IMG/VR virus record: IMGVR_UViG_3300031813_000004 | Coordinates: 86,157 to 150,156 of that record | Strand: one strand, 5' to 3' | From: a virus | Lineage: Duplodnaviria; Caudoviricetes | DNA: 64,000 nucleotides | Part shown: positions 12,469-63,237 of the stretch, one piece after another | Layout of the letters: each line of letters opens with the position of its first letter | Numbering within the stretch: the stretch's first letter is position 1 | The notes under the pieces: model-generated | Seen by the model: only the letters and a program-made list of their open reading frames with translations | What the model was told of the DNA's origin: nothing | The model's database searches: none | Program-made: the position numbers and the translations under genes

Positions 12469-12882
12469 GTGAATAATTATAAAACTAAAATGGTAATAGT
12501 TTGGAGAAATGATTTAAAAGTTAGAAAAGGAAAATTCGGGAGTCAGATCGGGCATGCTGTATTAGGAATATTTACTAAAAATATGGAATTGTATTCATTT
12601 GATACAAGTAGTGGTAGAGTTGGAACTATGTCAATGGATGTAAATCAAGATATGATTGAATGGTTTGAAAACTCATTTGCTAAAATTTGTTTGAGTTGTG
12701 ACAGCGAAGAAGAACTATTAGAATTATACAAAAAAGCAGAAGAAGCTAAATTACCTTGTATATTAATAACTGATAATGGGACTACTGAATTTCATGGAGT
12801 TAAAACAAATACATGTATAGGAATAGGTCCAGCTAAAAGTGAAGAAATAGATAAAATTACTGGTCACCTTAAGTTGGTGTAA
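12469..12882 (+). CDS. pth2: Peptidyl-tRNA hydrolase, Pth2 type
   Basis: KMVIV.RNDL..RKGK..SQ.GHA, KICL, I.D.G.TEF, T..GIGP....IDKITGHL.L. Confidence 0.92.
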   Translation: MNNYKTKMVIVWRNDLKVRKGKFGSQIGHAVLGIFTKNMELYSFDTSSGRVGTMSMDVNQDMIEWFENSFAKICLSCDSEEELLELYKKAEEAKLPCILITDNGTTEFHGVKTNTCIGIGPAKSEEIDKITGHLKLV

Positions 12883-13373: not shown

Positions 13374-13604
13374 ATGAAAAGCGAATTAGTAAAAAAAGAA
13401 ACAAAACAACAATACCCATGTTTAATGAAATTTAAAGATAATGATAGAAAAGGAACTTTTATAGTTTTATTTAATGTTTATGGTAGTGGAGTCATAGTTT
13501 ATACAGAAAGAAATGACAATTCAAGTGTTGGTTCTTATTATAGTGCTTGGGATATGAACAATTTTACTTTAACTAATGACAAAATTATTTTATCAAATGA
13601 ATGA
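13374..13604 (+). CDS. Hypothetical protein
   Basis: ORF with RBS. Confidence 0.6.
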   Translation: MKSELVKKETKQQYPCLMKFKDNDRKGTFIVLFNVYGSGVIVYTERNDNSSVGSYYSAWDMNNFTLTNDKIILSNE

Positions 13605-13774
13605 AACAAAAATATATTTTAGATTATGAAATAAATCAACCTTCAACATGTTATGATTGTAAATATAGATTTTGGGATGAATTATTAAATTATTGTTTTT
13701 GTCAAATTAACCAAAGACCTTATTTAAAAGATGTTAATAAAATGTGGGAATGTGATGGATATTATGAAAACTAA
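13601..13774 (+). CDS. CxxC-DEL-C mini-protein (satellite member 1; absent from ORF track)
   Basis: Manual translation MKQKYILDYEINQPSTCYDCKYRFWDELLNYCFCQINQRPY...ECDGYYEN. Confidence 0.75.
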   Translation: MKQKYILDYEINQPSTCYDCKYRFWDELLNYCFCQINQRPYLKDVNKMWECDGYYEN

Positions 13775-13952
13775 AAAACTACCAATGGATTTTTCATACC
13801 CAGTAAAATGTGTTGATTGCAAACATAGATTTGAAGATGAATTATTAAAGTATTGTTTTTGCAAAATAGAACAAAGACCATATTATCAAAAAATTGGATA
13901 TGATGCTACAACAAGAGAGTGTGATGGGTATGAAAAAGAAAATATATTCTAG
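13764..13952 (+). CDS. CxxC-DEL-C mini-protein (satellite member 2)
   Basis: CVDCKHRFEDELLKYCFC..QRPY...ECDGY. Confidence 0.75.
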   Translation: MKTKKLPMDFSYPVKCVDCKHRFEDELLKYCFCKIEQRPYYQKIGYDATTRECDGYEKENIF

Positions 13953-14112
13953 TTGTATTTTTCCAGGCTTCTTTTGTAAAAGATGTAAATATTTATTTTA
14001 TGATGAATTAGTTCATTGGAATATATGTATGATGAATAAAACTCCATATCAAGAGGAAAGTGATAGATATTCAAAATATCACTGCGAGTTTAGAATAATA
14101 CAGGAGGGTTGA
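13930..14112 (+). CDS. CxxC-DEL-C mini-protein (satellite member 3)
   Basis: CKRCKYLFYDELVHWNIC...HC. Confidence 0.7.
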   Translation: MKKKIYSSCIFPGFFCKRCKYLFYDELVHWNICMMNKTPYQEESDRYSKYHCEFRIIQEG

Positions 14113-14357
14113 TTATGCAAAAATCAAAAGCTCCATGGTCGCATGAAGAAGTTGCAAATTTAAAGAAAAGACAAACAATTGGAATTATGCATGAGTATAC
14201 ATGTGGTTGTGGAAGGTCTTTAATACCAACAATTGAAGGTTGGAAATGTGTATGTAAACCTGGAGTAATTCAAAATTGGGCTGAACAAGCAGATGCTGAT
14301 GGAAGGTTTATAGAATTTGCAAATGATATAAAAAATAAATTTGAGGGATTAAAATGA
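14109..14357 (+). CDS. Hypothetical Zn-binding protein
   Basis: HEYTC...GWKC..C pattern. Confidence 0.6.
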   Translation: MIMQKSKAPWSHEEVANLKKRQTIGIMHEYTCGCGRSLIPTIEGWKCVCKPGVIQNWAEQADADGRFIEFANDIKNKFEGLK

Positions 14358-14602
14358 GATCTCTTATTAAAATAATTAAGGAATGTATTTGGGAATATTT
14401 TCATCCTATTTCTTGTTTTAAACAAATGTTGGAAGAATCTAAAAATAAAAAGGAGAATAAGTAAATGGAAGCTTTATGTAAAGAATGTTGTAATTGTAAG
14501 ATGTTTAAAGAAGGTAAATGTTCATTAGGTTTAAATGAATCTGCTATTAATTGTGGTAGTTGGACGAATAAACTTCAACTTTTACAGGAATAATGATAAC
14601 GG

Positions 14603-18042: not shown

Positions 18043-18092
18043 AACCAGAACATCTGTGAACCCTTCTCACATAAGGGTTTACTGTTCTGGTT
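18043..18092. other. Long intergenic stem-loop
   Basis: AACCAGAACA/TGTTCTGGTT plus GTGAACCCTT/AAGGGTTTAC stems, 3-nt bulge, 7-nt loop. Confidence 0.6.
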
Positions 18093-18146
18093 ATATGAAC
18101 AAAATACTGAAGGTAAATTACATTGTTTATATGGGAGAAAAATACA

Positions 18147-19337
18147 ATGAGTAATCAACCAGCTTCAAAATTAACAATTTTTATGAAAGAAAATTTTAAA
18201 AAATCAAATAAAGAGTTATTAGATATTGCTATAAAAGATTTTAATTATTCTTATGGTCCTGGTTCATTTTCAACTTATATTAATAGACTTAGAAAAAAAT
18301 TTAAAAATATAGAAGTAAAAGAAGTACAACCACAACAAGACTTTATTAAATTAATTCAATCTAGAAAAATAATATCTCTATTTGAATTAACAAAAATATT
18401 ACATTGTGATGGAACAGAATTAATTAAATTAATTGATGATTATAAAACTCAAGGTTATCATATAATTATTGATAATGATATATTACATTATGGAGCTTAT
18501 AATATTAATACTGGAATTATAAAACCTAATCAATTAGAAGAAAAAGAAATAATTTTTGCTGCAGCTTCTGATTTACATTTTGGGTCTAAAGCATGCCAAA
18601 TAACTGCATTAAATGAATTTTGTAATGAATGTAGAAAACAAGGAGTTAAACATATTTTTTCACCTGGAGATGTTACGGCTGGAAGACATGTATATCCAGG
18701 TCAAGAATTTGACTTATATGAATTATCTGCACAAGGGCAAACTGACTCATTATTAGCAAATTTACAAACTGGATTTGATTGGTGGATATTGGGTGGTAAT
18801 CATGACTATTCTCATATTAAAAATGGTAGTTATAATCCATTAAATGTAATGTCAAGTAAAAGACATGATTTACATAACTTAGGTTATGATGAATGTGTTG
18901 TTCCTATTTTAAATGGAATTGATTTACAAATGTGGCATCCTTCTGGTGGAGTTCCTTATTCAATTTCTTATAGATTACAAAAAGGTGTTGAACAATTAGC
19001 ATTCTCTGAATTATTATCAGTATCTAGAGGACTGAAAGAAAAACCATCTATTAAGTTTGTATTATGTGGTCACTTACATATTCAAATGCAAGCATTATTT
19101 GGAAGTATTTTTGGAATGCAATGTGGAGCATTTGAGGGAGTTACAAACTACTTAAAAAGAAAAGGATTAGTTCCGGCTATTGGTGGATATATTGTTAAAG
19201 CTAATATTAAAAATAATGGAATATTAAACTTTGAAGCTAAATTTTATTTATACCCAGAAATTATAGATGATTGGAAAAATTATTCACATTCATACAATGA
19301 AGAGAAGATTCAACTTAAACCAATTTTAGAAGGATAA
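18147..19337 (+). CDS. Calcineurin-like metallophosphoesterase with N-terminal HTH-like region
   Basis: SDLHFGS, GDVTAG, GNHD, WHP, GHLH motifs. Confidence 0.88.
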   Translation: MSNQPASKLTIFMKENFKKSNKELLDIAIKDFNYSYGPGSFSTYINRLRKKFKNIEVKEVQPQQDFIKLIQSRKIISLFELTKILHCDGTELIKLIDDYKTQGYHIIIDNDILHYGAYNINTGIIKPNQLEEKEIIFAAASDLHFGSKACQITALNEFCNECRKQGVKHIFSPGDVTAGRHVYPGQEFDLYELSAQGQTDSLLANLQTGFDWWILGGNHDYSHIKNGSYNPLNVMSSKRHDLHNLGYDECVVPILNGIDLQMWHPSGGVPYSISYRLQKGVEQLAFSELLSVSRGLKEKPSIKFVLCGHLHIQMQALFGSIFGMQCGAFEGVTNYLKRKGLVPAIGGYIVKANIKNNGILNFEAKFYLYPEIIDDWKNYSHSYNEEKIQLKPILEG

Positions 19338-19340
19338 AAT

Positions 19341-19544
19341 ATGGGTTCCATAAAATTCTTTGATGAAGAATTAGAAATTACTACTAATGAATATGTTGAA
19401 GAATATTGTAGTTGTTGTAAACATTTAGAATATTTAGATAAATTAGTTTATTTTGTTATATGTAAGTTACCTTATTCAGAATCAATATGGGATAATCGTA
19501 AAGATATTAATATGTGTTATGATTTTAAAAGAAAGGATGAATAA
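19341..19544 (+). CDS. CxxC-DEL-C mini-protein 1
   Basis: CSCCKHLEYLDKLVYFVIC. Confidence 0.8.
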   Translation: MGSIKFFDEELEITTNEYVEEYCSCCKHLEYLDKLVYFVICKLPYSESIWDNRKDINMCYDFKRKDE

Positions 19545-19744
19545 TGTCATCAATACAATTTAATGATAATAATATTAGTATAGTTAATGATAGATTATTA
19601 ATTAGATGTTTTAAATGTAAATTCATTGAGTATCAAGATGAATTATTAGACCATATTGTTTGTAATAAGATATTACCTACAACTTTAGAATGGTATAAAA
19701 GAGTTAATTATTGGGGGTCTTGTTGCTTTTTTATGGAGAAATAA
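19544..19744 (+). CDS. CxxC-DEL-C mini-protein 2
   Basis: CFKCKFIEYQDELLDHIVC. Confidence 0.8.
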   Translation: MSSIQFNDNNISIVNDRLLIRCFKCKFIEYQDELLDHIVCNKILPTTLEWYKRVNYWGSCCFFMEK

Positions 19745-19954
19745 ATGCCTAATATTAATTTTATAAAAAATGAAAATATTTATTTTACAGATAATTATAA
19801 TATTTTAATGTGTAAAGACTGTATATATTTAATATTTCTAGACGAATTAACTAATTATGCTATATGTAATATGGATTATTTAAAACATTATCTTATGCTT
19901 TTTCCAGATGGTTGTACAAGACATATAAAGGAAAAATTAAATGGCAACAGTTGA
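19745..19954 (+). CDS. CxxC-DEL-C mini-protein 3
   Basis: CKDCIYLIFLDELTNYAIC. Confidence 0.8.
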   Translation: MPNINFIKNENIYFTDNYNILMCKDCIYLIFLDELTNYAICNMDYLKHYLMLFPDGCTRHIKEKLNGNS

Positions 19955-20138
19955 ATTTTTATTTTTAAAATTAACTAGATCAACTAGATTTTATAACATA
20001 ATAAATTGTAAAACATGTGAATGGTTAGTATTCTTAGATGAATTAATAGAACATTCTATTTGTAATTATTCTAATTTAAAAGAACATGATCATTATCTTT
20101 ATGTATCTGGTTGTTCTCGTTATAAAAATAAGGAGTGA
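19941..20138 (+). CDS. CxxC-DEL-C mini-protein 4
   Basis: CKTCEWLVFLDELIEHSIC. Confidence 0.8.
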   Translation: MATVEFLFLKLTRSTRFYNIINCKTCEWLVFLDELIEHSICNYSNLKEHDHYLYVSGCSRYKNKE

Positions 20139-20141
20139 TAT

Positions 20142-20378
20142 ATGGATAATTATATTATCATATACGAAAAACATAATAAAGAAACAAAAACATCTTTACT
20201 ATATATTGAATATAATTGTGAAAATTGTAAATATTTCAAATTTTTAGATAAGTTAACTAGATTTTTGATTTGTGGTAACTCAGATGTAAAAGCTTTAGGA
20301 GAAGAATGTTTAATTAGAAAGGATTCATTATTATTAAATATGAAATTGAATTTAAAGAACACCCAGTTCAGAATATGA
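20142..20378 (+). CDS. CxxC-DEL-C mini-protein 5 (C-terminus probably extended by a lost stop)
   Basis: CENCKYFKFLDKLTRFLIC. Confidence 0.8.
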   Translation: MDNYIIIYEKHNKETKTSLLYIEYNCENCKYFKFLDKLTRFLICGNSDVKALGEECLIRKDSLLLNMKLNLKNTQFRI

Positions 20379-20518
20379 CAGCTCCAGTTTCTTATATTAA
20401 TGTGAATTGTAAAAACTGTAAACATTTAAAATTTTTAGACGAATTACTTTATTTTGTAATTTGTGGGTGTGTATCATCAAAATGCTATGTAAGTTTTAAT
20501 TGTTTAGAAAGGAAATAA
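20375..20518 (+). CDS. CxxC-DEL-C mini-protein 6 (absent from ORF track; original start probably 20330)
   Basis: Manual translation MTAPVSYINVNCKNCKHLKFLDELLYFVICGC...NCLERK. Confidence 0.7.
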   Translation: MTAPVSYINVNCKNCKHLKFLDELLYFVICGCVSSKCYVSFNCLERK

Positions 20519-20521
20519 TTA

Positions 20522-20728
20522 ATGATAATATATAATATTAAAACAAATGATAATAAATTAAGTGAATTAACTGAAGAATACTATGAAGAATTTTGTAAAA
20601 ATTGTATTAATATAAAAATGATTGATAATCTAACTCGTTATTTGGAATGTAAAAAATATGAACATACCACATTAGTACGAAAAGATTGTATGGTTATTTG
20701 TGCTGATTTTAAATTAAAGGATAAATAA
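20522..20728 (+). CDS. CxxC-DEL-C mini-protein 7
   Basis: CKNCINIKMIDNLTRYLEC. Confidence 0.8.
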   Translation: MIIYNIKTNDNKLSELTEEYYEEFCKNCINIKMIDNLTRYLECKKYEHTTLVRKDCMVICADFKLKDK

Positions 20729-20934
20729 TGGATATTATTACTATAGAAATAAACAAAAGAATAGTTACATATTCTGTATTAAAAAATATTGATTTTATTT
20801 TAAATTGTTGTGAAACATGTCCTAATTGTATATTCGTAGACAAGCTTTTAAATCACATCTCCTGCAAATGTAAACACTCTCCTATATTTTATCCCAGATG
20901 TTCTAATCGCTTTCCTAGGAAAGATTCATGGTAA
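20728..20934 (+). CDS. CxxC-DEL-C mini-protein 8
   Basis: CETCPNCIFVDKLLNHISC. Confidence 0.8.
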   Translation: MDIITIEINKRIVTYSVLKNIDFILNCCETCPNCIFVDKLLNHISCKCKHSPIFYPRCSNRFPRKDSW

Positions 20935-21134
20935 ATTTTACGATATATTTTACGGTCCCATGTATATTAATCCACTATAGACAATCTAAAATTATATGTG
21001 GAGATTGTAAGCATTATTTATTTATTGATGAATTAACAAACCATATTATTTGTAATCATGATAATCTTGCTCATTTTTATACAGGGTGGACAGATAATAC
21101 AACATGTGGTAATATTAATAGGAACCCTATATGA
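20928..21134 (+). CDS. CxxC-DEL-C mini-protein 9
   Basis: CGDCKHYLFIDELTNHIIC. Confidence 0.8.
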   Translation: MVNFTIYFTVPCILIHYRQSKIICGDCKHYLFIDELTNHIICNHDNLAHFYTGWTDNTTCGNINRNPI

Positions 21135-21298
21135 CTTGTAAAAATATAACAAAAATAAAATATTTAGGAAAAGTCAGAAGTGATAATAATATGTTACATA
21201 ATTATCAATGTTCATCTTGTAAAAAGATTGGAATATTGAGTTGTTACGAAGATGAATTAGAAACTGAAAAACAACTAAAAAGAATACATGAGAGTTAA
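21131..21298 (+). CDS. Small Zn-ribbon-like ORF interrupting the array
   Basis: Manual translation MTCKNITK...YQCSSCKKIGILSCYEDELETEK. Confidence 0.55.
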   Translation: MTCKNITKIKYLGKVRSDNNMLHNYQCSSCKKIGILSCYEDELETEKQLKRIHES

Positions 21299-21300
21299 CT

Positions 21301-21534
21301 ATGGTAACAATAGAAGATATTAATAATAAAATACAAGATATAGGAACTATTGATTATACATTTTTAAATTCTGATGTTTTTAATTTATGTGGAAATTGTA
21401 TTTATTGTTCACATATTGATGAACTAATAAATTATGTTAAATGCAACCATAAAAAGGGTAGTAGATTTTATAATTTTTATAAAAAAGATTTAAAATGCTG
21501 GTATTATAGTGAGGTGGTAATTGGTGACTATTGA
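21301..21534 (+). CDS. CxxC-DEL-C mini-protein 10
   Basis: CGNCIYCSHIDELINYVKC. Confidence 0.8.
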   Translation: MVTIEDINNKIQDIGTIDYTFLNSDVFNLCGNCIYCSHIDELINYVKCNHKKGSRFYNFYKKDLKCWYYSEVVIGDY

Positions 21535-21748
21535 ATATACCAAACTAAACTTAGTAGAAAATTTTAGTTCTATAAATTACCATGACGATGATATATTAGA
21601 TATATGTAAAACTTGTAAAAACTTAGTATATATGGATGAGCTAATAAAACATATTAAATGTAGATCACAAGGACCAGTTCAATTTAGAAAATTTTTTGAA
21701 ATGAAAGTTAAATGTATGAATAAACCAAGAGGAATAAGATATGATTGA
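21521..21748 (+). CDS. CxxC-DEL-C mini-protein 11
   Basis: CKTCKNLVYMDELIKHIKC. Confidence 0.8.
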   Translation: MVTIEYTKLNLVENFSSINYHDDDILDICKTCKNLVYMDELIKHIKCRSQGPVQFRKFFEMKVKCMNKPRGIRYD

Positions 21749-21944
21749 ATATCCTAAATTTGATAATAAATTATCTGCAGATGGCGGAAATCAAACTACA
21801 AATTTATGTAAGATATGTCCTAATTGTTTATATATAGATGAATTAATGAACTATATTAAATGTAATGCAGATAGAATTTCTTTCTTTTATTATATCAAAG
21901 AAAATTTAATATGTATAAATAGACCAAAATGCATAAAATTATGA
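21741..21944 (+). CDS. CxxC-DEL-C mini-protein 12
   Basis: CKICPNCLYIDELMNYIKC. Confidence 0.8.
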   Translation: MIEYPKFDNKLSADGGNQTTNLCKICPNCLYIDELMNYIKCNADRISFFYYIKENLICINRPKCIKL

Positions 21945-22147
21945 TAACTATTCAATTTTGTAATAATAAACAGATATATTTACATTTTAATAAAGTTTAT
22001 GATAATATTGGTCTTACACTTTGTGAAGAATGTAATAAGAAAATATTTATTGATAAACTTACAAATTTTATTTTATGTGATATGCCAAGAATATCTTTTG
22101 ATTATAATAAAGAATGTAAATTATATCAATTACAAAAATCAATCTAA
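21941..22147 (+). CDS. CxxC-DEL-C mini-protein 13
   Basis: CEECNKKIFIDKLTNFILC. Confidence 0.8.
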   Translation: MITIQFCNNKQIYLHFNKVYDNIGLTLCEECNKKIFIDKLTNFILCDMPRISFDYNKECKLYQLQKSI

Positions 22148-22156
22148 GGAGTATAT

Positions 22157-22477
22157 ATGGAAGAAATTACAATTCAATTTAATTACTTAAATCTTAAAAG
22201 AATTGAATCTCATAATTTTTATAGTAGTAATATAAATGACCCAGATAAGATTTTTGATTATAAATGTTGTGAACAATGTAAAGATCATGTTTTAGTTGAT
22301 GTACTTTTAAGATATGTTGAATGTAATTCTGATAGAATGTTAAATGGATCTTCTTATTATCAAGATAATGGAACAGGTAAAAATTGGTGTGCATTTGGTC
22401 CTAGAATAAAATATGGAAGTTCTAATTTAACAGATTCTGATGCCATTATAAAAAATAAAGAGGTAGTTAAAAAATGA
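22157..22477 (+). CDS. CxxC-DEL-C mini-protein 14
   Basis: CEQCKDHVLVDVLLRYVEC. Confidence 0.8.
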   Translation: MEEITIQFNYLNLKRIESHNFYSSNINDPDKIFDYKCCEQCKDHVLVDVLLRYVECNSDRMLNGSSYYQDNGTGKNWCAFGPRIKYGSSNLTDSDAIIKNKEVVKK

Positions 22478-22698
22478 TATCTATAGATTTTCCTAATTGT
22501 AAAAGAAAAAAATTATGTAGTTATCATACTGATGATGAAGATTCAAGAATCATAGATAAATGTGATAAATGTATAAAACATATTTATATTGATAAACTTA
22601 TTAATCATGTTATTTGTAATGCAAAAGAAACACCTACTTTTTCTTTTAATTTAGATTATAATGGTTCTATATATTGTACTATGGAAAAGGAGAAATAA
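22474..22698 (+). CDS. CxxC-DEL-C mini-protein 15
   Basis: CDKCIKHIYIDKLINHVIC. Confidence 0.8.
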   Translation: MISIDFPNCKRKKLCSYHTDDEDSRIIDKCDKCIKHIYIDKLINHVICNAKETPTFSFNLDYNGSIYCTMEKEK

Positions 22699-22946
22699 TG
22701 ATAGTATCTTTTCAATTTCCAAATCATATAGATTCAAATAAAATTTACAAAGATATAAATTTTATGGGTATAGATGTATTTGATTTTGAAAATTGTAAAA
22801 AATGTAAATATTATAACTATGTTGATGAATTATTAAATATCATCATATGTCTTAGAATAATAGATAATGAAAATGGATTTTGTAAATTGAGTGTATATGA
22901 CAACCAAATGTTTTGTTGTTATGGACAAGAGTATTTTAGAGGTTAA
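22698..22946 (+). CDS. CxxC-DEL-C mini-protein 16
   Basis: CKKCKYYNYVDELLNIIIC. Confidence 0.8.
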   Translation: MIVSFQFPNHIDSNKIYKDINFMGIDVFDFENCKKCKYYNYVDELLNIIICLRIIDNENGFCKLSVYDNQMFCCYGQEYFRG

Positions 22947-22948
22947 TT

Positions 22949-23167
22949 ATGAAAATAGAAATTAATATTCATCTACCACTATCAATTAATAGAAATTATA
23001 GAATTTCATTAGATAATATGATATTTGATTTTAATAGATGTAAACATTGTTATCTTAATATTTTTGTAGATGAATTATTATATTATGTCGAATGCAAACA
23101 TAACGATACCTTAAAATTTTCAGAAGATAATACCGAGTGTTCATGTATTAATGGAATTGAAATATGA
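22949..23167 (+). CDS. CxxC-DEL-C mini-protein 17
   Basis: CKHCYLNIFVDELLYYVEC. Confidence 0.8.
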   Translation: MKIEINIHLPLSINRNYRISLDNMIFDFNRCKHCYLNIFVDELLYYVECKHNDTLKFSEDNTECSCINGIEI

Positions 23168-23406
23168 TTGAGATAACATTCTATTTACCAAACATGCACC
23201 CAGTAAATGATAGTCTTAATTTATATCAAATAGGAGATACATTTAATTTTAATATTTGTAAAAAATGTAGTTTTAATATTTCAACAGATGAATTATTAAG
23301 GCATATTGAATGTAAAAGGAAATATATGGGAGTTTTTTCATATGATGATAAAACAAATTTAGTTTATTGTAACCTTGGATTAGAAAATGAAAGGAGAGAT
23401 AAATGA
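23164..23406 (+). CDS. CxxC-DEL-C mini-protein 18
   Basis: CKKCSFNISTDELLRHIEC. Confidence 0.8.
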   Translation: MIEITFYLPNMHPVNDSLNLYQIGDTFNFNICKKCSFNISTDELLRHIECKRKYMGVFSYDDKTNLVYCNLGLENERRDK

Positions 23407-23630
23407 TAATATCATTTTATTTTCCTAATAATGATAGAATGAAAAAAGATATGGAATTTAAATTTAGTAAATTAGATATAATAGAAAGAATAATATATGA
23501 CTTTAGTATTTGTGAAAATTGTAAATATAATATATCAGTTGATAAAATTATGAATCATATTATTTGTAGTAAAATAAATTCATTTAATGTCAACCTTGAC
23601 TATGATAATAAAAGATATTATTGTTACTGA
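23403..23630 (+). CDS. CxxC-DEL-C mini-protein 19
   Basis: CENCKYNISVDKIMNHIIC. Confidence 0.8.
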   Translation: MIISFYFPNNDRMKKDMEFKFSKLDIIERIIYDFSICENCKYNISVDKIMNHIICSKINSFNVNLDYDNKRYYCY

Positions 23631-23641
23631 GATAAAAATTA

Positions 23642-23917
23642 ATGAAAGAAATTAAAAATATAATTACTTTTCTATTTTCAAAAATTGATAAACCAAGATG
23701 TGAAAAATTTAACTTTGTATCAGATTATACAGACGAAACTTGGGATTCAAAAAGGACTTTTGATTTTGAAATATGTAGAAATTGTATTAAAAATATTTTT
23801 GTTGATGAATTACTTAATCATATTGAATGTTCTTATTTAGGATATTCTATATACTATGATGTTGAGGCTCACAAATATTATTGTTATTTTGGATCACAAA
23901 ACCAAAGGAGTAAATAA
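23642..23917 (+). CDS. CxxC-DEL-C mini-protein 20
   Basis: CRNCIKNIFVDELLNHIEC. Confidence 0.8.
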   Translation: MKEIKNIITFLFSKIDKPRCEKFNFVSDYTDETWDSKRTFDFEICRNCIKNIFVDELLNHIECSYLGYSIYYDVEAHKYYCYFGSQNQRSK

Positions 23918-24265
23918 ATGATTATATTACACAATGAGAAATGTTATTTCTGTCATGGACAGTTAGTTGAAATCAAAAATATGGTATTAAATTGTAGCCC
24001 AATTGAAGTTAGATATGGTGGTTCTAATCCAATGAAAGAAACTTCCACTGGGTTATTTTGTAGAGAATGTGGTTTAAGATACGCATTTAAACCGAGTGAA
24101 GTAAAAGAATACGTTGCTAAATGTATTGAAAGTGATTTAAGAGAAGAAGCTAAAGAGACAGAACATATGAATAAAATTTTTGAAGGAATGAGAAAGAATA
24201 CTAAAGTTAAAACATTAGACGAACTTAAAAAAGATAGTGTTGATATGTTTATAAAAAGGAGATAA
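23918..24265 (+). CDS. Zn-ribbon hypothetical protein
   Basis: CYFC...CRECG. Confidence 0.6.
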   Translation: MIILHNEKCYFCHGQLVEIKNMVLNCSPIEVRYGGSNPMKETSTGLFCRECGLRYAFKPSEVKEYVAKCIESDLREEAKETEHMNKIFEGMRKNTKVKTLDELKKDSVDMFIKRR

Positions 24266-24420
24266 ATGAAAAATAAAATAAATCAAACAAAGATTGTTAA
24301 AAGACAATCTAGAGAAATGTTTAAAGGAATTTTACCTAGAGGTAAAATTATGGAAAAGAAAAAGAAAGATATATCACAAGAAGAAATTACTAATGGAATT
24401 AATGAGTATAAGGAGAATTA

Positions 24421-24750
24421 ATGAAAATATTATTTAATAGAATTGATGATTTAGAAAAAGCTAATCAAAGACTTAATACAGTATTAGAATCTTTTTGTAG
24501 AGAAAATACTAGATTATTAGAAGAAGTACTTGATTTAAAGAAAAAATTATATTTTCCAGAAACAACAGAATCCAAAATTAATGATGAAGGAATAATAGCA
24601 TTAAAAGAACAAATGCAAGATAGAATTAAAATTTATGAATGGTCTGTAAATAATTATAAAAACGAAGAAGTTAACTTAAAAAAGAAAATTGACCTATTGG
24701 AATATCAACTAGAAATTGCTAATGAAAGGATAAAAGCCAATGGAGAATAA
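24421..24750 (+). CDS. Coiled-coil hypothetical protein
   Basis: ORF with RBS. Confidence 0.6.
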   Translation: MKILFNRIDDLEKANQRLNTVLESFCRENTRLLEEVLDLKKKLYFPETTESKINDEGIIALKEQMQDRIKIYEWSVNNYKNEEVNLKKKIDLLEYQLEIANERIKANGE

Positions 24751-25156
24751 AGATAGAATATGTAAACTATTAGAAGAATTACATAATCTTGCATTTGATA
24801 AAGACTCCAATTTAATATTAGGTCAATCTCAATATTTTGCATCATTATCTCAAAATATTTATGCAGCATATTTATTTGGGGATTTAGAAAATTTAGCTAA
24901 ATCAATCAATGAATATATGAATAAACATAGAGATAAAAAAGAAATTAAAAAAAAAGGATTTTACCCGTGGTTTGATTCTCTTCCTGATAATAAAAAATTT
25001 ATTATATTTATGATGTTGGTATGTCCATTTATTATTCCTTTCGGATATTCTATATTTACTAAAAATAGTATATTTTCATTAATATTTTCTGTATTATGGT
25101 TATTTGGATTAATAACTACAAGACTTATTTATCTAGCTAAAAAAGAATTAGAATAA
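24740..25156 (+). CDS. Membrane protein
   Basis: Two C-terminal hydrophobic helices. Confidence 0.6.
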   Translation: MENKDRICKLLEELHNLAFDKDSNLILGQSQYFASLSQNIYAAYLFGDLENLAKSINEYMNKHRDKKEIKKKGFYPWFDSLPDNKKFIIFMMLVCPFIIPFGYSIFTKNSIFSLIFSVLWLFGLITTRLIYLAKKELE

Positions 25157-25166
25157 GGAGTTCATA

Positions 25167-25412
25167 GTGAGTAAAAAATATATAGTAGCTAATTTTTTAA
25201 GTTTTAGTAAAGGAAGAAAATATCAAGCAGGCACAGAATTAATATCATTAGACGAAAATGATGAATATGTTATTGAAAATAAAGGAATTAAAACATATGA
25301 CGGAGATAAATTTTTTAGAATTGGAGATCATAAATTTATATTAATGAAAGAGGAATACAAAGTTAAAAAAATTAAAAAAGGAGATAATGATGAATCTAAA
25401 AAAAGCAATTGA
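25167..25412 (+). CDS. Hypothetical protein
   Basis: GTG start after AAGGAG. Confidence 0.55.
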   Translation: MSKKYIVANFLSFSKGRKYQAGTELISLDENDEYVIENKGIKTYDGDKFFRIGDHKFILMKEEYKVKKIKKGDNDESKKSN

Positions 25413-26091
25413 ATATTTAGAATCATTTTCAGACCTTTGTAAAATTTATAGCTTAACTAGAGCTATAAAAATTGTTTTAGTTAATTTAAAAAAATTACAA
25501 TCACAAGACAAAGAAATATCTGAATTAAAAGAAAAAGTTAAATATGTGGAATCTATGGGTTTACAATTTGGGATAATGAAAACTAGCAATAAACCAGAAG
25601 GATTTCTTGCTCATGTTTGGAGTGAAACTTCAGACTATCAAAGAATGAGCAGAGATTGGATGGATTCAATGCATTTTGAAATTGAAAATAAAAAATTACA
25701 TGATAGAATAACTGAATTAGAATTTGATACAGCGCATCAAAAATCTAAAATAGATTTATTAAATAAAGATATTGATGGTTTAATAAAAGATCAAGAAATA
25801 GAAATTAATAATTGGGTTGAAAGAAATAAAAAATTATCAAAACAAATAAATAACATTAAAGATATACATAAAAAAGAGATCGAAGATATAGAAGAACATA
25901 CAAGTCAAATAGCTATTAATGAATCTTTAGAATTAGAAATTAACCTTAAAGATATTGAGATTAAAAAACTTAGAAAAGCTCTTATTGAAACAGGTTGTAA
26001 TAATTTATTTTGTCAAGAAGTTAATAGAATATGTGGGAATTGTCCTGCAAGAATGAATAAAAAAATTAAATTATTTGAGGATAATTTATGA
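25387..26091 (+). CDS. Coiled-coil hypothetical protein with C-terminal Cys cluster
   Basis: ORF with RBS. Confidence 0.6.
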   Translation: MMNLKKAIEYLESFSDLCKIYSLTRAIKIVLVNLKKLQSQDKEISELKEKVKYVESMGLQFGIMKTSNKPEGFLAHVWSETSDYQRMSRDWMDSMHFEIENKKLHDRITELEFDTAHQKSKIDLLNKDIDGLIKDQEIEINNWVERNKKLSKQINNIKDIHKKEIEDIEEHTSQIAINESLELEINLKDIEIKKLRKALIETGCNNLFCQEVNRICGNCPARMNKKIKLFEDNL

Positions 26092-26489
26092 TTAATATAA
26101 CACCTGAAAATATAACATCTTTAAAAGAAAATGAAATATTCGTATTTGGTTCTAATTATGCAGGAAGACATGGTAAAGGTGCAGCATTATTAGCAATGAA
26201 AAAATTTGGAGCTAAATCCGGTCAAGGTACTGGATTTATGGGCAATTGCTATGGAATAGCTACAAAAGATAGTAAACTTAAAGTTTTACCTCTTAATAGA
26301 ATAGAATGGCAAATTCATACTTTTTTAGAGTTTGCCAATGAAAATCAACATTTACACTTTTTAGTCACTAAGATAGGATGTGGACTTGCAGGGTATAAAC
26401 CAAAAGATATAGCTCCATTATTCTTTAAATATGATATTCCTTCTAACATAAGTTTACCTGAATGTTTCTTGAAATATAAGGAAAAATAA
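26088..26489 (+). CDS. Macro-like phage protein (A1S_2505-like)
   Basis: EIFVFGSN.AGRHGKGAA, YGIAT, FLVTKIGCGLAGY. Confidence 0.8.
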   Translation: MINITPENITSLKENEIFVFGSNYAGRHGKGAALLAMKKFGAKSGQGTGFMGNCYGIATKDSKLKVLPLNRIEWQIHTFLEFANENQHLHFLVTKIGCGLAGYKPKDIAPLFFKYDIPSNISLPECFLKYKEK

Positions 26490-26779
26490 TGAAAACTTTA
26501 ATTTTAACTATTTTATTCATTTTGTTTAGTATTAATTCATTTGCATCAGTTAGTTCAAAAACTAAAAAAACTATTGATGATTCAATGGATAGAGTTGCTA
26601 TTGCTTATTTTAATAAAGGAATGGATGAAGGTGTTATTTGTGGGATGGAAATAGTATTACAAATTAATGAATATTCTAAAAAAGGAATTAAAACACCAGA
26701 AGATGTTATATTAGATTTAATAGAAAATTGTAAAGAAAAAGCTGAAAATAATATTTTATATTTATTAAGAAAGAAATAA
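26489..26779 (+). CDS. Secreted hypothetical protein
   Basis: Signal peptide ending SFA. Confidence 0.6.
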   Translation: MKTLILTILFILFSINSFASVSSKTKKTIDDSMDRVAIAYFNKGMDEGVICGMEIVLQINEYSKKGIKTPEDVILDLIENCKEKAENNILYLLRKK

Positions 26780-26793
26780 GGAGGAAATAAAAC

Positions 26794-27198
26794 TTGAAGT
26801 CTAAGAATACTGATAAGACAATTGGGTTAAATGTAAATTATGAAGAAAAATTTAGAGACATAAGACATAGAGCAAAAGATGAAGAAATTAATTTAAGAAA
26901 AAATAAAAGAGATAAACAAGAACATGAACCAAGATTTAAAATTGAAGAATTAGTAGTCATTACAAATACTGGTTATAAATCTCAAGATAAAGTTTATCAG
27001 TTAGTTGAAGTGTTAGATATTGTTGAGAGATATAAAGATAATTTTGAATATTTTGCAATAGTAAGAAAAACAACTGAGAAAAATTCTTTTCATAGTATTG
27101 GAAGATTAACAATGTTTTCTGAACAACCTTTTCATTTAAAGTTTTATCCCGCTAATATTAATCCTGAAGATATCAAATGGATAGAAAAGGAGAATTAA
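26794..27198 (+). CDS. Hypothetical protein
   Basis: RBS AGGAGG. Confidence 0.6.
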   Translation: MKSKNTDKTIGLNVNYEEKFRDIRHRAKDEEINLRKNKRDKQEHEPRFKIEELVVITNTGYKSQDKVYQLVEVLDIVERYKDNFEYFAIVRKTTEKNSFHSIGRLTMFSEQPFHLKFYPANINPEDIKWIEKEN

Positions 27199-27411
27199 AT
27201 GAGAATAAAAGGATTTCATAATGTTATTGGAGAAGTTTTCTTTACTGACCAATGTCTTGTTATGCAAAAAAGAAGTCCTAGTAAAGAATCAATATTTGTA
27301 GAACATGGAAATGATATAACAATAGTTACAAGAAGGAGATGTTCGTTTAAAAAATCAAATGGGGAAATAGCAAGATATGATGACTTAGTTGAAGGAAAAA
27401 TAAAAGAGTAA
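27199..27411 (+). CDS. Hypothetical protein
   Basis: RBS AAGGAG. Confidence 0.55.
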   Translation: MRIKGFHNVIGEVFFTDQCLVMQKRSPSKESIFVEHGNDITIVTRRRCSFKKSNGEIARYDDLVEGKIKE

Positions 27412-27514
27412 TTACTTAGAATGTATAGGTAACAAAGCAATTAAACTAGGATATTAAACTAGGATATTAATAAAAATAAAGTACTAATATAAGTGATTTA
27501 TGGAGTTATAAATT

Positions 27515-27802
27515 ATGAATGATAATTATCATTATAGCGAAATATCTGAAAATAGAAATGAAGATGTTGCTAGATGGTTAAATAATTGGATAACACAAGG
27601 TAGTACGTATCATAGACTACATGTAACAAGATTATTAGAATTAATAGTTGAAAAAGGATTTTATAATTTTGAGATAACATTTGATTTTATTTTGAAATGT
27701 TATAAATTTAAACTAACACCAGAAAACATTCAATTTTCAAGTGAACTACAACATGCAATATACAATTCTATAGTTTATGAAATTGATAATCCATCAAGAT
27801 AA
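27515..27802 (+). CDS. Hypothetical protein
   Basis: Last ORF before terminator. Confidence 0.55.
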   Translation: MNDNYHYSEISENRNEDVARWLNNWITQGSTYHRLHVTRLLELIVEKGFYNFEITFDFILKCYKFKLTPENIQFSSELQHAIYNSIVYEIDNPSR

Positions 27803-27803
27803 C

Positions 27804-27843
27804 AAAAATGGGATAAGGTATTTCACTTATCCCATTTTTTTGT
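27804..27843. terminator. Bidirectional intrinsic terminator
   Basis: AAAAATGGGATAAG / CTTATCCCATTTTT between convergent blocks. Confidence 0.85.
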
Positions 27844-27849
27844 AAAAAT

Positions 27850-28014
27850 TTATTTTTTATCTAATTCATGTTTTATCTCAACTACTCTATCCAAAGCTTC
27901 TTCCAATAATTTTATTATTCTCCTGCCTGCTTTTCTCAATTCTGGATCATCAGATTCCTGTAATAAAATACAAAGGTTTGCTGACTCTGAAATGCAATTT
28001 ATTATTTTTAACAT
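27850..28014 (-). CDS. Small protein downstream of tail fibre
   Basis: Manual translation MLKIINCISESANLC...HELDKK; RBS AGGAGG. Confidence 0.55.
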   Translation of the reverse strand: MLKIINCISESANLCILLQESDDPELRKAGRRIIKLLEEALDRVVEIKHELDKK

Positions 28015-28041
28015 AATCAACAAACCTCCTTTTTGAATTTT

Positions 28042-31000
28042 TTAATAACTACCGGTAGTATATAAAAAGTGCCAATAAGTTCCATCTGCTACATAAAAAC
28101 CTGGGCCACCATAACTAGACCCAGTATAGCATGCCACATCACCTAAACCTCTTGTAGTTGGAAGTGTATTTCTACAAGTGAGTTTTAAAGGTGCTGATGT
28201 AGCATTACCAGTAAATTTACCACCGTATCCTGTTCCTTCCGCGTTACCTGTAACTGCATAGCCTGCACCACTAGTGACTCCTAATATGGCATAACCATCT
28301 CCTGTTATAATATTTGAAAATATTCCATTAGTTGCAGCCATATTATTTTGTGAAAACAACAAAACATTACCATTTCCACCCACAGTATCTAAATATATAG
28401 TTCCTCCAGGTCCAACAGAACCCATAGTATTAGATACACTATCTATAAAATTTGATGGTGATGTTGTACTTACTATTAAACAATTAATTGGCGCAGTTCC
28501 GCCACCATTTTGAACTCCTGTAAAAGTATTACTTGTAATACCTGTATATGTTGCATAAGCCCCAGAGCTAACAAATAGAAGGTTTCCAGATGTTGGGAAT
28601 CCAGCAGTAGATGTAACATTTATTGTAGTTTGATTAGATGCCATTGGAGAAGTTAATTGGCAACCTTGTGTTGAAATAGTAGAACCTACTAATGTCCCAG
28701 CTGTTATATTGCTTGCAGAAATCTTACCACTAACATATAAATTTCCACCACTTACAGTAAATGGAGCTAATTTTGTTGAAGGGGTACTAGGATCAACGAT
28801 ACTAAATTCATTTGCTACGATATTAAAACCACTAGTTGAACCGTCATTCCATGCTTTATAACCGCTTATATTTCCATTTGTATCTAATGTTACAGTTGCG
28901 GTAGAACTCATTTTTCCTGATAAATCTGAAGTTGTTTCATAACTCCCTAATGCTGAAGCCATACCTGAACTTGTAACTAAATTTGCATTTGTAATAGCAG
29001 ATGCTATTGTATTAGTTAAAGTAGACGAAGTACTATAATTTGTTATAGCTGAAGATATACTAGTTATATCTTGAAACTGAAACTCATCTACCAAGAATGT
29101 ACCTGTTCCGTTAGGGTAGTTTCCGAATGCTATGGGTTGTGCGGATACAGTGCCTGTCGGGAATTGGCCAGACCCTGTTCCAGTAACGGTTCCAGTATAT
29201 GTTTGCCATCCTCCTGCCACTGTTAAGATACTACTACCTGTTATGTAGCAATACCCACCATTTGATCCTGTTGTTGCACCATTTTTATCTCTTGATATAT
29301 ACCCAATATAGAGTAAATTATTTCCTGATGAAGAATCTATAGTCTGCTTTGCTCGAAATGTTATCTGATAAGTATGAGTGGTGTCTATAGCAACAGGTGT
29401 TCCATATTCAATAGTAGCCTGTGGACCAGTAAGTTGTAATGCATTTCCTCCAGTGCTGCCTCCACCAGATAATAGAGTTCCTCCTCCACTCCAATATTGT
29501 GTTCCTAGAGAAAATGTTGAGTTCATTAATCCTGCATTTGCTAATGTATTTGTTACCCCTGTTACTGCAGTTGCAATTGCACTATTCATTCCTGTAGTAG
29601 TTGTATAAGAAGATAAAGACGTAGCCGTATTATTTCCAGACTGTGATACAGCACTTGTAATAGCATTAGCTATTGCAGTATTCATATTTGTAGTAGTTGT
29701 ATAATATGATAAAGATGTTGCAAGACTTGAACTACTAACTAATGAACTTGTAGCAGCAGTTATAGCACTTGATATTGCATTATTCATTCCAGTTGTTGTT
29801 GTATAACTGCTAAGTGATGTAGATGTATTAGTTCCAGATTGTGATACAGAACTTGTTATAGCATTAGATATTGCAGTATTCATATTAGTTGTAGTTGTAT
29901 ATGAAGATAAAGATGTTGCTAAACTTGAATTGGTAACTAGAGAACTTGTAGCACTTGTTATTGCACTTGATATTGCACTATTCATTCCAATTGTTGTTGT
30001 ATAAGATGATAATGCATTTGCTGTTTGTGTAATATCAACAAAACTAAATTCATCTATTTGTGTGGTTCCTGTTCCATGTAAATCATTAACTAAGAAAACT
30101 GGTTTGATATAAATAGTTCCTGGTGTAAATTGTGTAATACCAGTTCCAGACCCTGTCATATTAATTGTAAATGTTTGCCAACCTTGAGCTACAGTTATTG
30201 GAATAGCATTTGCAACTGAATATGTATATGCCCCTCCACCATTTCCAGTTATGGTATTATAATTTGAATCTAAGTTTACCACACCTACATATATATTTCT
30301 TGCTCCTGAAACTGAATCAATAGTTTGTTTAACTCTAAAAGTTATTTGATATGTATGAGTAGCATTAATGGGAATAGCTGTAGCATAAATACCATAATTA
30401 TTACCAACTACTTGTAAAACGTCTCCACCAGTACTACCAGCTCCAGTAACTATTGTTCCAGGCGCAGCACCACTAGAAATTTGTCCAGTTGGTGTTGATG
30501 ACCAATATTGAGTTCCAGATGCAAAAAATGGATTTACGTCGGATAAGCCACCACCTTGAGCACCAATAATTGCAGTTGCAATAGCTGAATTCATATTAGT
30601 CGTGGTCGTATAAGAAGATAGAGCTGTTGATGTATTAGCTCCAGCTTGAGATACTGCACTTGTGATTGCAGTTGCAATAGCGGAGTTCATTCCAGTTGTA
30701 GTTGTATAAGATGATAAAGAATTTGCTAAACTTGAGTTACTAACTAAAGAACTTGTAGCAGCAGTTATAGCTGTAGATGTTGCACTATCTGCTGCAGTCT
30801 TTGTATAATAACTCGAAAGAGAAGTTGCAAGACTACTATTACTAACTAAAGAACTTGTAGCACCAGTTATAGCTGTTGATATTGCACTATTCATATTAAC
30901 AGTTGTTGAATATGATGAAAGTGATGTTGCCAAACTTGAATTAGAAACCAAAGAACTTGTTGCACCAGTTACAGCAGTTGAAATAGCAGAGTTCATTCCT

Positions 31001-31932
31001 GTCGTTGTTGTATACGAAGATAATGATGTTGCCAAACTTGCATTTGTTACAAATGAACTTGTTGCACCAGTTATTGCAGTTGAAGTTGCACTATCAGCAG
31101 CAGCCTTTGTATAATAATTACTAAGTGAAGTTGCCAAACTTGTATTAGAAACCATAGAACTAGTTGCACCAGTTACAGCAGTTGATATTGCACTATTCAT
31201 ATTTGTAGTTGTTGAATATGCTGAAAGAGATGTTGCTAAACTAGTTCCAGTTATAAATGAACTTGTAGCAGCAGTTATAGCCGATGAAGTTGCACTGTCA
31301 GCAGCAGTTTTTGTATAATAACTTGATAATGATGTTGCCAAACTTGTATTTGTTACAAATGAACTTGTTGCACCAGTAATTGCAGTTGCAATAGCTGAGT
31401 TCATATTTGTAGTTGTTGAATATGCTGAAAGTGAACTTGCTAAACTTGTATTGCTAACTAATGAACTTGTTGCTGTTGATATAGCAGAATTCATTGCTGA
31501 AATTGTAGAATAACTTAATAGAGAACTTGATAAACTTGAGTTACTAACTAAAGAACTTGTCGCGTTAGCTATAGCTGTATTCATACTAGCAGATGTTGCA
31601 TAAGAAGCTAATGAATTTGTAAGATTTGTATTACTAACTAATGTACTTGTTGCATTAGCTATAGCAGTATTAAGTTGACTATTAGTAGTATAAGTATTAT
31701 TTAACAATTTATGAGTAGTTGTATAATTAGAAAAAATTTGTGTAACTGGGATATTATTAACTAAAGTTTGGGTCCATCTTCCTGACTGGTATACTGGTAT
31801 AATTTCCACGCCAGATAATGGAACCGTAGTTGTTGGAAAGTAAATAGGATTTATGTCACTAGCTAATGACGTTCCAGTTAAAATCAATATAAACATCATT
31901 GTAATTAAATATTTAAACTTTTGTATTTTCAT
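28042..31932 (-). CDS. Tail fibre / host-specificity protein with Ser/Thr coiled repeats and two carbohydrate-binding modules
   Basis: Many ATSLSSYTTTT.MNSAI.TA.T.ATSSLVSN repeats; duplicated TYQITFR.KQT...GWQT...DEF.F.DIT domain; DTNGNISGY...F.IVA..F.I (gpJ/DUF1983-like); signal-peptide-like N-terminus. Confidence 0.75.
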   Translation of the reverse strand: MKIQKFKYLITMMFILILTGTSLASDINPIYFPTTTVPLSGVEIIPVYQSGRWTQTLVNNIPVTQIFSNYTTTHKLLNNTYTTNSQLNTAIANATSTLVSNTNLTNSLASYATSASMNTAIANATSSLVSNSSLSSSLLSYSTISAMNSAISTATSSLVSNTSLASSLSAYSTTTNMNSAIATAITGATSSFVTNTSLATSLSSYYTKTAADSATSSAITAATSSFITGTSLATSLSAYSTTTNMNSAISTAVTGATSSMVSNTSLATSLSNYYTKAAADSATSTAITGATSSFVTNASLATSLSSYTTTTGMNSAISTAVTGATSSLVSNSSLATSLSSYSTTVNMNSAISTAITGATSSLVSNSSLATSLSSYYTKTAADSATSTAITAATSSLVSNSSLANSLSSYTTTTGMNSAIATAITSAVSQAGANTSTALSSYTTTTNMNSAIATAIIGAQGGGLSDVNPFFASGTQYWSSTPTGQISSGAAPGTIVTGAGSTGGDVLQVVGNNYGIYATAIPINATHTYQITFRVKQTIDSVSGARNIYVGVVNLDSNYNTITGNGGGAYTYSVANAIPITVAQGWQTFTINMTGSGTGITQFTPGTIYIKPVFLVNDLHGTGTTQIDEFSFVDITQTANALSSYTTTIGMNSAISSAITSATSSLVTNSSLATSLSSYTTTTNMNTAISNAITSSVSQSGTNTSTSLSSYTTTTGMNNAISSAITAATSSLVSSSSLATSLSYYTTTTNMNTAIANAITSAVSQSGNNTATSLSSYTTTTGMNSAIATAVTGVTNTLANAGLMNSTFSLGTQYWSGGGTLLSGGGSTGGNALQLTGPQATIEYGTPVAIDTTHTYQITFRAKQTIDSSSGNNLLYIGYISRDKNGATTGSNGGYCYITGSSILTVAGGWQTYTGTVTGTGSGQFPTGTVSAQPIAFGNYPNGTGTFLVDEFQFQDITSISSAITNYSTSSTLTNTIASAITNANLVTSSGMASALGSYETTSDLSGKMSSTATVTLDTNGNISGYKAWNDGSTSGFNIVANEFSIVDPSTPSTKLAPFTVSGGNLYVSGKISASNITAGTLVGSTISTQGCQLTSPMASNQTTINVTSTAGFPTSGNLLFVSSGAYATYTGITSNTFTGVQNGGGTAPINCLIVSTTSPSNFIDSVSNTMGSVGPGGTIYLDTVGGNGNVLLFSQNNMAATNGIFSNIITGDGYAILGVTSGAGYAVTGNAEGTGYGGKFTGNATSAPLKLTCRNTLPTTRGLGDVACYTGSSYGGPGFYVADGTYWHFLYTTGSY

Positions 31933-63228: not shown

Positions 63229-63237
63229 GTTACCTCC

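Follow-up and report, generated by a model that had tools for sequence, protein, structure and literature searches.

A tandem array of twenty highly diverged four-cysteine mini-protein genes in an uncultivated phage

We analyzed a window of 64,000 nucleotides that forms the last 64 kb of the 150,156-bp IMG/VR record IMGVR_UViG_3300031813_000004 (record positions 86,157 to 150,156), assigned to an uncultivated virus of the Caudoviricetes. Positions below refer to the window unless given as record positions. Between 19341 and 23917, the plus strand carries 21 consecutive, co-oriented small open reading frames (ORFs) of 47 to 106 amino acids (aa), most of which overlap, with gene junctions from -25 to +11 nt. 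Twenty of the 21 ORFs encode the motif C-x2-C-x6-D-x-[LI]-x5-C, and all 20 motif-bearing copies contain at least one further cysteine 11 to 22 residues past the third. The initial annotation of this stretch had reported 20 near-consecutive, mostly coupled mini-genes with C-x2-C-x6-D-(E/K)-L-x5-C plus a fourth cysteine, located 3 nt downstream of a metallophosphoesterase gene. Both observations were borne out: the motif was absent from 300 shuffles of the array DNA, and the first array gene begins at 19341, 3 nt past the stop of a 404-aa Metallophos gene that ends at 19337. Outside the array, the strict motif was not found in the six frames of the 64-kb window.

The array, all on the plus strand, opens with members 1 (19341-19544, 67 aa, reading CSCC..DKL..C), 2 (19544-19744, 66 aa), 3 (19745-19954, 69 aa), 4 (19941-20138, 65 aa) and 5 (20142-20378, 78 aa). 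Member 6 (20375-20518), the shortest at 47 aa, lacks the N-terminal strand region described below and is followed by three members of 68 aa each, namely 7 (20522-20728, with D-N-L in the motif), 8 (20728-20934) and 9 (20928-21134). The tenth ORF (21131-21298, 55 aa) is the one that deviates from the motif. It encodes CSSC, with DEL displaced to ten residues after it and neither a third nor a fourth cysteine in register. The family profile matched this copy with an E value of 2.4e-6, over a stretch that itself crosses two TAA stops, and the ORF is probably a decayed copy. Beyond it lie members 10 (21301-21534, 77 aa), 11 (21521-21748, 75 aa, TTG start), 12 (21741-21944, 67 aa) and 13 (21941-22147, 68 aa), the last with its start placed as in the identical contig L017, a longer frame being open from 21929. 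Member 14 (22157-22477, 106 aa) has a C-terminal tail that is common to its closest look-alikes, P0021 and P0024 from other metagenomic phages, the orthology having been judged by eye. The array is completed by members 15 (22474-22698, 74 aa), 16 (22698-22946, 82 aa; ATG start as in L017, with TTG at 22674 also open), 17 (22949-23167, 72 aa), 18 (23164-23406, 80 aa; the copy P0001 used for modeling), 19 (23403-23630, 75 aa, D-K-I) and 20 (23642-23917, 91 aa).

These genes are real and coding. Stop-free stretches of at least 47 codons cover 99.6% of the plus strand of the array as opposed to 8.7% in shuffles. The GC content of third codon positions was 12%, compared with 11% in well-supported genes of the same phage, codon-position composition matched as well, and a Shine-Dalgarno-like motif precedes 16 of the 20 copies. 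The region appears to be an operon-like array in which each small gene would be translated independently. Two other arrangements were considered and rejected. Silent cassettes for gene conversion do not fit the start codon and, mostly, ribosome-binding site that each copy has of its own. A polyprotein read through by frameshifting does not fit either, since the copies are spread over all three frames and are joined by coupled junctions of the ordinary kind (ATGA, TAATG).

Per-column counts over the 20 array copies gave C, C, D and C of the motif as invariant, and the motif leucine was present in 19 copies. The residue between the aspartate and the leucine, which the initial annotation had included in an invariant "DEL," is variable: Glu in 12 copies, Lys in 6, Asn in 1 and Val in 1. 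Three positions before the third cysteine, His occurs in nine copies, Tyr in six, Phe in four and Ile in one. About 18 of the 20 copies start with a hydrophobic strand of the M-I-x-I-x-F type; this segment had been noted earlier in most members and is also a strand in the AlphaFold prediction. The family alignment contains no conserved stretch of 7 to 10 columns. Judged by these alignments, a conserved four-cysteine (Cys4) core stands beside highly variable remaining sequence.

The family extends beyond the array and is larger than the initial annotation had reported. A relaxed motif scan and profile searches revealed 10 paralogues elsewhere in the record that have one residue less between the knuckle and the aspartate; these are called x5 members here, and the array copies x6 members. 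Six of them lie at record positions 23083-24649, one at record positions 64900-65220, and three in the window at 13601-14112. The trio consists of plus-strand genes at 13601-13774 (57 aa), 13731-13952 (a 73-aa frame whose true start is probably 13755) and 13894-14112 (a 72-aa frame whose true start is probably 13924). The six-gene x5 array is flanked directly upstream by a DUF2201 metallopeptidase/VWA-like gene (record 21798-23114; L015:799-2115) and directly downstream by a gene for a GyrB-like type II topoisomerase subunit. Across all 20 x5 sequences, taken from two phages, four cysteines and the leucine are invariant, and alignment of the x6 and x5 profiles with hhalign (probability, 93.8%; E, 1.7e-7) indicates that the two subfamilies are homologous. 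In total, the 150-kb record contains 30 members in four arrays.

The second of these phages, the sister phage G001 (IMGVR_UViG_3300040758_000214; 143 kb, 46% complete), encodes an orthologous phosphoesterase of 67 to 68% identity and 23 family members in five arrays. At its phosphoesterase locus, three members are followed by an unrelated 66-aa gene, a fourth member, a 232-aa Metallophos gene and, further on, a fifth member. This comparison, suggested in the initial annotation, thus set 4 to 5 phosphoesterase-adjacent copies in G001 against 21 genes here. Net charge among the members of both phages spanned -8 to +16, and its median was close to zero. Arrays of 3 to 13 members were also found on the metagenomic contigs L011/L012, L027 and L029, and in one of these relatives the array lies after baseplate-spike and PAAR-like genes. 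Searching 1.84 billion representative proteins with the family profile returned 39 hits, of which about 20 came from outside this record; the latter had the same core and lengths of 48 to 147 aa, save one repetitive 1038-aa chance hit. In a word-indexed search of 5.8 billion proteins, the x6 and x5 profiles each returned the same phage lineage only, with no longer or fused forms of the family, the latter being weak evidence. Among 50,697 deposited phage genomes, neither the array region (by blastn) nor the relative's member P0022 (by tblastn) had a match. The family therefore appears, from these searches, to be confined to a few related metagenomic phages. The more distant phages L021-L023, L031 and L033 encode the phosphoesterase at 49 to 57% identity, and a family-profile scan of L021-L023 found no members. 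A metagenome scan with the phosphoesterase returned distant relatives only, one of which duplicates L021.

In or beside the arrays of relatives, we also observed a conserved domain of about 66 aa (..PEEIQKAL.L.W.YSDD..G.Y.I.F.LPK..) at L020:11952-12152, L027:1567-2010 and L029:3067-3309. In L027, it is fused to the C terminus of a family member, giving a 147-aa product. The domain was not noticed in the available part of the present record, in which no search for it was made.

Prediction of the structure of a member on its own, a check proposed in the initial annotation, gave for member 18 (23164-23406) an AlphaFold2 model with a mean predicted local distance difference test score (pLDDT) of 82 and a predicted template modeling score of 0.71, based on a 45-sequence alignment. 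Two N-terminal strands lead to a short helical turn that holds the CxxC and then to a strand ending at the aspartate; after a turn (E-L-L), a further strand ends at the third cysteine and is followed by a hairpin whose last strand ends at the fourth. The weaker x5 model (pLDDT, 68) lacks the N-terminal hairpin but otherwise runs through these elements in the same order. As modeled, the domain would be a beta-rich knuckle with hairpins, comprising one knuckle and four strands. The cysteines probably form a single Zn(Cys)4 site, and an iron site is also possible. The aromatic position (H/Y/F) is not a ligand because it is not conserved.

In the model, the aspartate lies at the end of a strand and the leucine in the next turn, a placement in which they may determine the fold rather than present a docking surface. 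The initial annotation had read the DEL as an invariant patch that docks on one shared partner; this reading is not supported, given the Glu-to-Lys charge reversal in 6 of the 20 copies, and a structural role is at least as likely. For the x6 model, no fold match rose above noise, whether in the PDB with Foldseek (E > 1) and with a wide VIA-align search (best Z, 2.8), in BFVD (E > 0.6) or in the ESM Atlas (template modeling score, ≤0.41); the x5 model had none in the PDB, by VIA-align included. An ESM Atlas feature search gave scores of ≤0.83, within the range of shuffled proteins. For a domain so small, the absence of a fold match is no proof of a new fold.

Pairwise identity within the main array was 15 to 51%. 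It was 31% for neighbors and 24% for genes at least eight genes apart (Spearman, -0.39; Mantel P < 0.0005). A maximum-likelihood tree was poorly resolved, as expected for 85 columns, and its supported clades were specific to one array and one genome; they include the last seven genes of the array (support, 97/87), the three-gene array of G001 (98/97) and the six-gene x5 array. The exception was the x5 trio at 13601-14112, two genes of which grouped with G001 copies while the third was unplaced; the trio looks like an older array common to both phages. Because neighbors are more alike and clades are array and genome specific, the pattern is the hallmark of local duplications that recurred once the phages had separated, or else of concerted evolution. 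It is also in keeping with copy numbers at the phosphoesterase locus that differ fourfold. The earlier proposals that the array arose by serial tandem duplication followed by divergence, and that neighbors form subfamilies, fit these data. Copy number and array content differ between the sister phages, and single copies can decay or be replaced.

In at least five phage lineages, the core has survived while the proteins diverged to about 25% identity, which amounts to purifying selection on the core residues. Orthologues were compared with a metagenomic strain (contigs L018/L019) that has about 84% DNA identity over 19803-20153. The ratio of nonsynonymous to synonymous substitution rates (dN/dS) was 0.25 for member 3, from only seven substitutions, and 1.13 for member 4 (41.5 nonsynonymous versus 8.5 synonymous differences), whose orthologue has Gly in place of the fourth cysteine. 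In the closest paralogue pairs, the proportions of nonsynonymous and synonymous differences were about equal (0.28 to 0.35), with the motif retained; dN/dS between paralogues is near saturation and biased by composition (almost only A/T at third positions, where GC is about 12%), and these values serve qualitatively only. Protein evolution outside the core is rapid.

In the same strain, a 115-aa ORF (L018:71-418 and L019:5-304) occupies the place of the N terminus of member 3 and of what lies upstream, and the short contigs end there. The ORF is clearly higher in GC, had no Pfam hit and contains the motif FDFAWPDW..ALEVQGG, which, read by eye, we take to resemble a PD-(D/E)XK nuclease of the Vsr/DUF559 type. 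Its appearance is that of a mobile nuclease inserted into the array. Since the nuclease-like ORF replaces the N terminus of member 3 in the sister strain, at least this copy is not essential, and insertions can enter the locus.

The initial annotation recognized no named family, and wider searches agreed. With 45 members, hmmscan against Pfam-A at E values up to 1 gave nothing consistent, PHROGs gave scattered chance hits of single members with no common family, and PADLOC gave one match to AriB (E, 0.0027) and nothing for the rest; PADLOC covers defense and not counter-defense proteins, so this null result says nothing on a counter-defense role. The only hit of the family profile among PDB sequences was at chance level, to the zinc-finger region of CEP104 (PDB 5lpi; E, 3.6). 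Nothing relevant was found in the literature on jumbo-phage paralogue arrays or arrays of zinc microproteins.

Several known systems share some of these features. Ogr of P2 and Delta of P4 (Ogr_Delta), Com of Mu, and TraR/DksA are phage-encoded proteins of 60 to 100 aa in which one presumed Zn(Cys)4 site stabilizes a very small domain that binds a macromolecule. The mini-proteins are likewise phage encoded and small, with a single presumed Zn(Cys)4 site. However, none of the 45 members or the family gave a profile match to them in Pfam-A or PHROGs, and the family spacing of C-x2-C-x14-C-x11..22-C (x13 in x5) differs from the two CxxC or Cx4C pairs, about 17 to 22 residues apart, of Ogr, Com and TraR. 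Those regulators are also single copy, whereas the mini-protein family has 23 to 30 copies per partial genome. The model recalls zinc ribbons and rubredoxin-like knuckles in that beta-hairpins would be clamped by four cysteines, with a CxxC knuckle before the first hairpin. A zinc ribbon, however, has two knuckles at hairpin turns and a three-stranded sheet, whereas one knuckle and four strands are predicted here, and the third and fourth cysteines each end a strand, with a whole hairpin between them. No zinc ribbon was among the structural matches, although tiny domains score poorly in such searches. The order C-x2-C ... L-x2-H-x2-C also resembles the C-x2-C-x12-H-x3-C/H of C2HC and UBZ fingers. 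Unlike in these and in the beta-beta-alpha finger of CEP104, the His is present in only 9 of 20 copies and is replaced by almost any residue in x5, the segment is predicted to be a strand rather than a helix, and a separate fourth cysteine is conserved. Tandem families of fast-evolving genes ("accordions") are well known in large DNA viruses, and the array is like them in its tandem, co-oriented, fast-diverging paralogues whose copy number varies between close relatives. As far as these comparisons go, the family appears to be undescribed and its expansion unusually large.

What the mini-proteins do was weighed among several explanations. They could be small zinc-finger regulators of the Ogr/Delta, Com or TraR/DksA-like kind that bind nucleic acid or polymerase and tune the transcription or translation of many gene sets, the premise being that the phage has its own multi-subunit RNA polymerases. 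Lengths of 47 to 106 aa and a single Cys4 site are what small phage zinc-finger regulators generally have, several x5 members are basic (isoelectric point, 9.1 to 9.6, with net charge up to +11 here; +16 and 9.8 in G001), and one x5 array lies directly upstream of the GyrB-like gene. Yet no member matches the Ogr_Delta, Com or DksA/TraR models, the cysteine spacing differs, and 30 copies in half a genome, whose charges span -8 to +16 and whose surfaces share no conserved residues, are hard to square with binding to nucleic acid or to one polymerase site; we consider this explanation quite unlikely. The adjacent enzyme suggests another role, in which the mini-proteins would serve the metallophosphoesterase as exchangeable subunits for specificity or regulation, docking through the core and picking the substrate or target with the variable face. 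The first array gene begins 3 nt past the stop of the enzyme gene, the sister phage G001 has the same gene order, and a second Metallophos gene (232 to 233 aa) borders the array in G001 and in contig L027. However, at four or five further loci, family arrays stand apart from any phosphoesterase gene, and six distant loci have an orthologous enzyme (41 to 57% identity, one on a 2.7-kb fragment), with no member in the three of three that were profile scanned. The supposed docking Glu is Lys in 6 of the 20 copies. The predicted complex of a member with the phosphoesterase, with a score of 0.00, gave no answer and counts neither for nor against binding. The link to the enzyme is weak overall, and a subunit role is improbable.

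Equally improbable is that the mini-proteins are carried in or ejected from the virion, as decoration or internal proteins that diversify because they are the first to meet the host surface or cytoplasm. It is true that baseplate-spike and PAAR-like genes precede one array of a related phage, that the x5 trio adjoins the sheath gene, and that the main array is 2.8 kb from it. The main array, however, lies on the strand opposite to the sheath gene, in a block of enzymes and small unknown genes, matches to PHROG structural families were single chance ones only, and other arrays lie among replication-type genes. The array could also be, for the most part, baggage without a function: a segment prone to duplication, in which copies drift and then decay. 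The dN/dS of about 1.1 and lost fourth cysteine of the member 4 orthologue, the decayed tenth ORF, and the replacement of the N terminus of member 3 and its upstream sequence by the nuclease-like ORF are what such drift would produce. Against this, all 20 copies, at about 25% identity, keep an open frame (8.7% open in shuffles), a start codon, mostly a ribosome-binding site, and the core residues, and at least four further phage lineages retain the same core, which leaves mere baggage with little chance of being correct.

The explanation that we favor, with a chance of being right that we place slightly below even when its structural claims are included, is that a zinc-stabilized scaffold has been diversified into a repertoire of binders for host takeover or counter-defense. 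One gene for a Cys4 mini-domain would have been duplicated locally and in tandem, repeatedly, to give the operon-like array. The knuckle cysteines (CxxC), the aspartate, the leucine, the aromatic residue, the third cysteine, and the fourth cysteine after the hairpin would form the fold-determining core, in which one tetrahedral Zn(Cys)4 site probably clamps two beta-hairpins, while the N-terminal hairpin, loops, tails and surface charge would be free to vary. Each copy would then be a small zinc-stabilized binding module, and the set a diversified repertoire for variable targets, the likeliest being proteins that the phage meets while taking over the host, or those of host defense. In its gains and losses of copies, such a set would resemble the gene accordions of large eukaryotic DNA viruses. 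We favor the binder repertoire because net charge runs from -8 to +16, tails and loops are free, only the core is common, and copies turn over. The adaptor or anti-defense function proposed initially is plausible only by analogy.

Several observations weigh against a binder repertoire. The settings of the arrays differ (phosphoesterase, GyrB-like, baseplate/PAAR and sheath genes) and give no functional pointer. No resemblance to any known anti-defense or host-takeover protein was seen. One orthologue lacks the fourth cysteine and one copy has decayed, so some copies may be leaving. The dN/dS values (0.25 for member 3 and 1.13 for member 4), from one orthologous pair and near-saturated paralogues, cannot separate positive, diversifying selection from relaxed selection.

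A bolder form of the binder repertoire, which we regard as rather unlikely, is a self-renewing library of zinc-stabilized mini-binders, made by duplicating one minimal Cys4 scaffold in place and diversifying its surface under positive selection, whose copies would neutralize different immunity or housekeeping proteins of the host; this would be an undescribed counter-defense strategy and, among phages, the equivalent of what host-range gene accordions are in poxviruses. If the mini-proteins do bind host proteins, they would be among the largest single-family phage repertoires known to us, with at least 30 genes in about 4% of 150 kb. They would also offer natural minimal scaffolds, with a core of about 45 residues and diversified surfaces, useful for discovering defense targets and for protein engineering. 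Even with a mundane function, the family makes a clean system for gene birth, divergence and death in phage genomes.

CheckV rates the 150,156-bp record as 48% complete, which would make the whole genome roughly 300 kb and the virus a jumbo phage; GC content is about 25%. The closest relatives of the tail sheath are those of AR9/PBS1, phiR1-37 and Staphylococcus jumbo phages (23 to 31% identity), and the carriers of the family appear to be a small clade of uncultivated jumbo myophages of about 25% GC with a sheath nearest to the AR9/PBS1/phiR1-37 type. Over 21528-30259, the window is matched with 100% identity by an 8.7-kb contig from run SRR11607848. The 404-aa metallophosphoesterase (18123-19337, plus strand), which PHROGs label "DNA repair exonuclease," has an extra N-terminal domain of about 140 aa, and its catalytic motifs are invariant among six orthologues of 49 to 67% identity.

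A terminator-like hairpin just upstream of the phosphoesterase gene (18056-18082, plus strand) may mark a boundary of the transcription unit, and a perfect 14-bp palindromic hairpin with A5/T5 flanks at 27804-27839, which reads alike on both strands and was called on the minus strand only, may mark the end of the plus-strand gene block. The terminator scan found no such site within the array. These positions fit one long transcription unit for the array and do not prove it. A scan for sigma-70 promoters was uninformative in such AT-rich DNA (95 sites versus 106 expected). Directly after the main array, 23918-24265 encodes a 115-aa protein with two CxxC pairs, and the x5 trio is followed by Cys-rich ORFs of 82 aa (14109-14357) and 42 aa (14465-14593); none of the three matched the family profiles.

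Besides tail genes, the window encodes an NAD-dependent ligase, RtcB (RNA ligase, 42994-44298) and two nucleotidyltransferases, together with a peptidyl-tRNA hydrolase, PTH2 (12469-12882), a papain-family cysteine protease (51704-52459) and, on the minus strand at 4046-5575, a homing/HNH endonuclease (PHROG E, 5e-108); these genes make up a rich RNA-repair set. Also on the minus strand, 28042-31932 is a 1296-aa tail-protein-like ORF (PHROG tail protein E, 8.5e-32), which contains, at roughly 29540-31670, many diverged internal repeats spaced by about 100 to 200 bp with 66 to 84% nucleotide identity. Outside the window, at record positions 63012-63779 (L016:13-780), the record encodes FolE2, a type I GTP cyclohydrolase (Pfam E, 8e-56), 1.1 kb upstream of an x5 family member; the enzyme may hint that the phage has nucleotide chemistry of the 7-deazaguanine or folate type.

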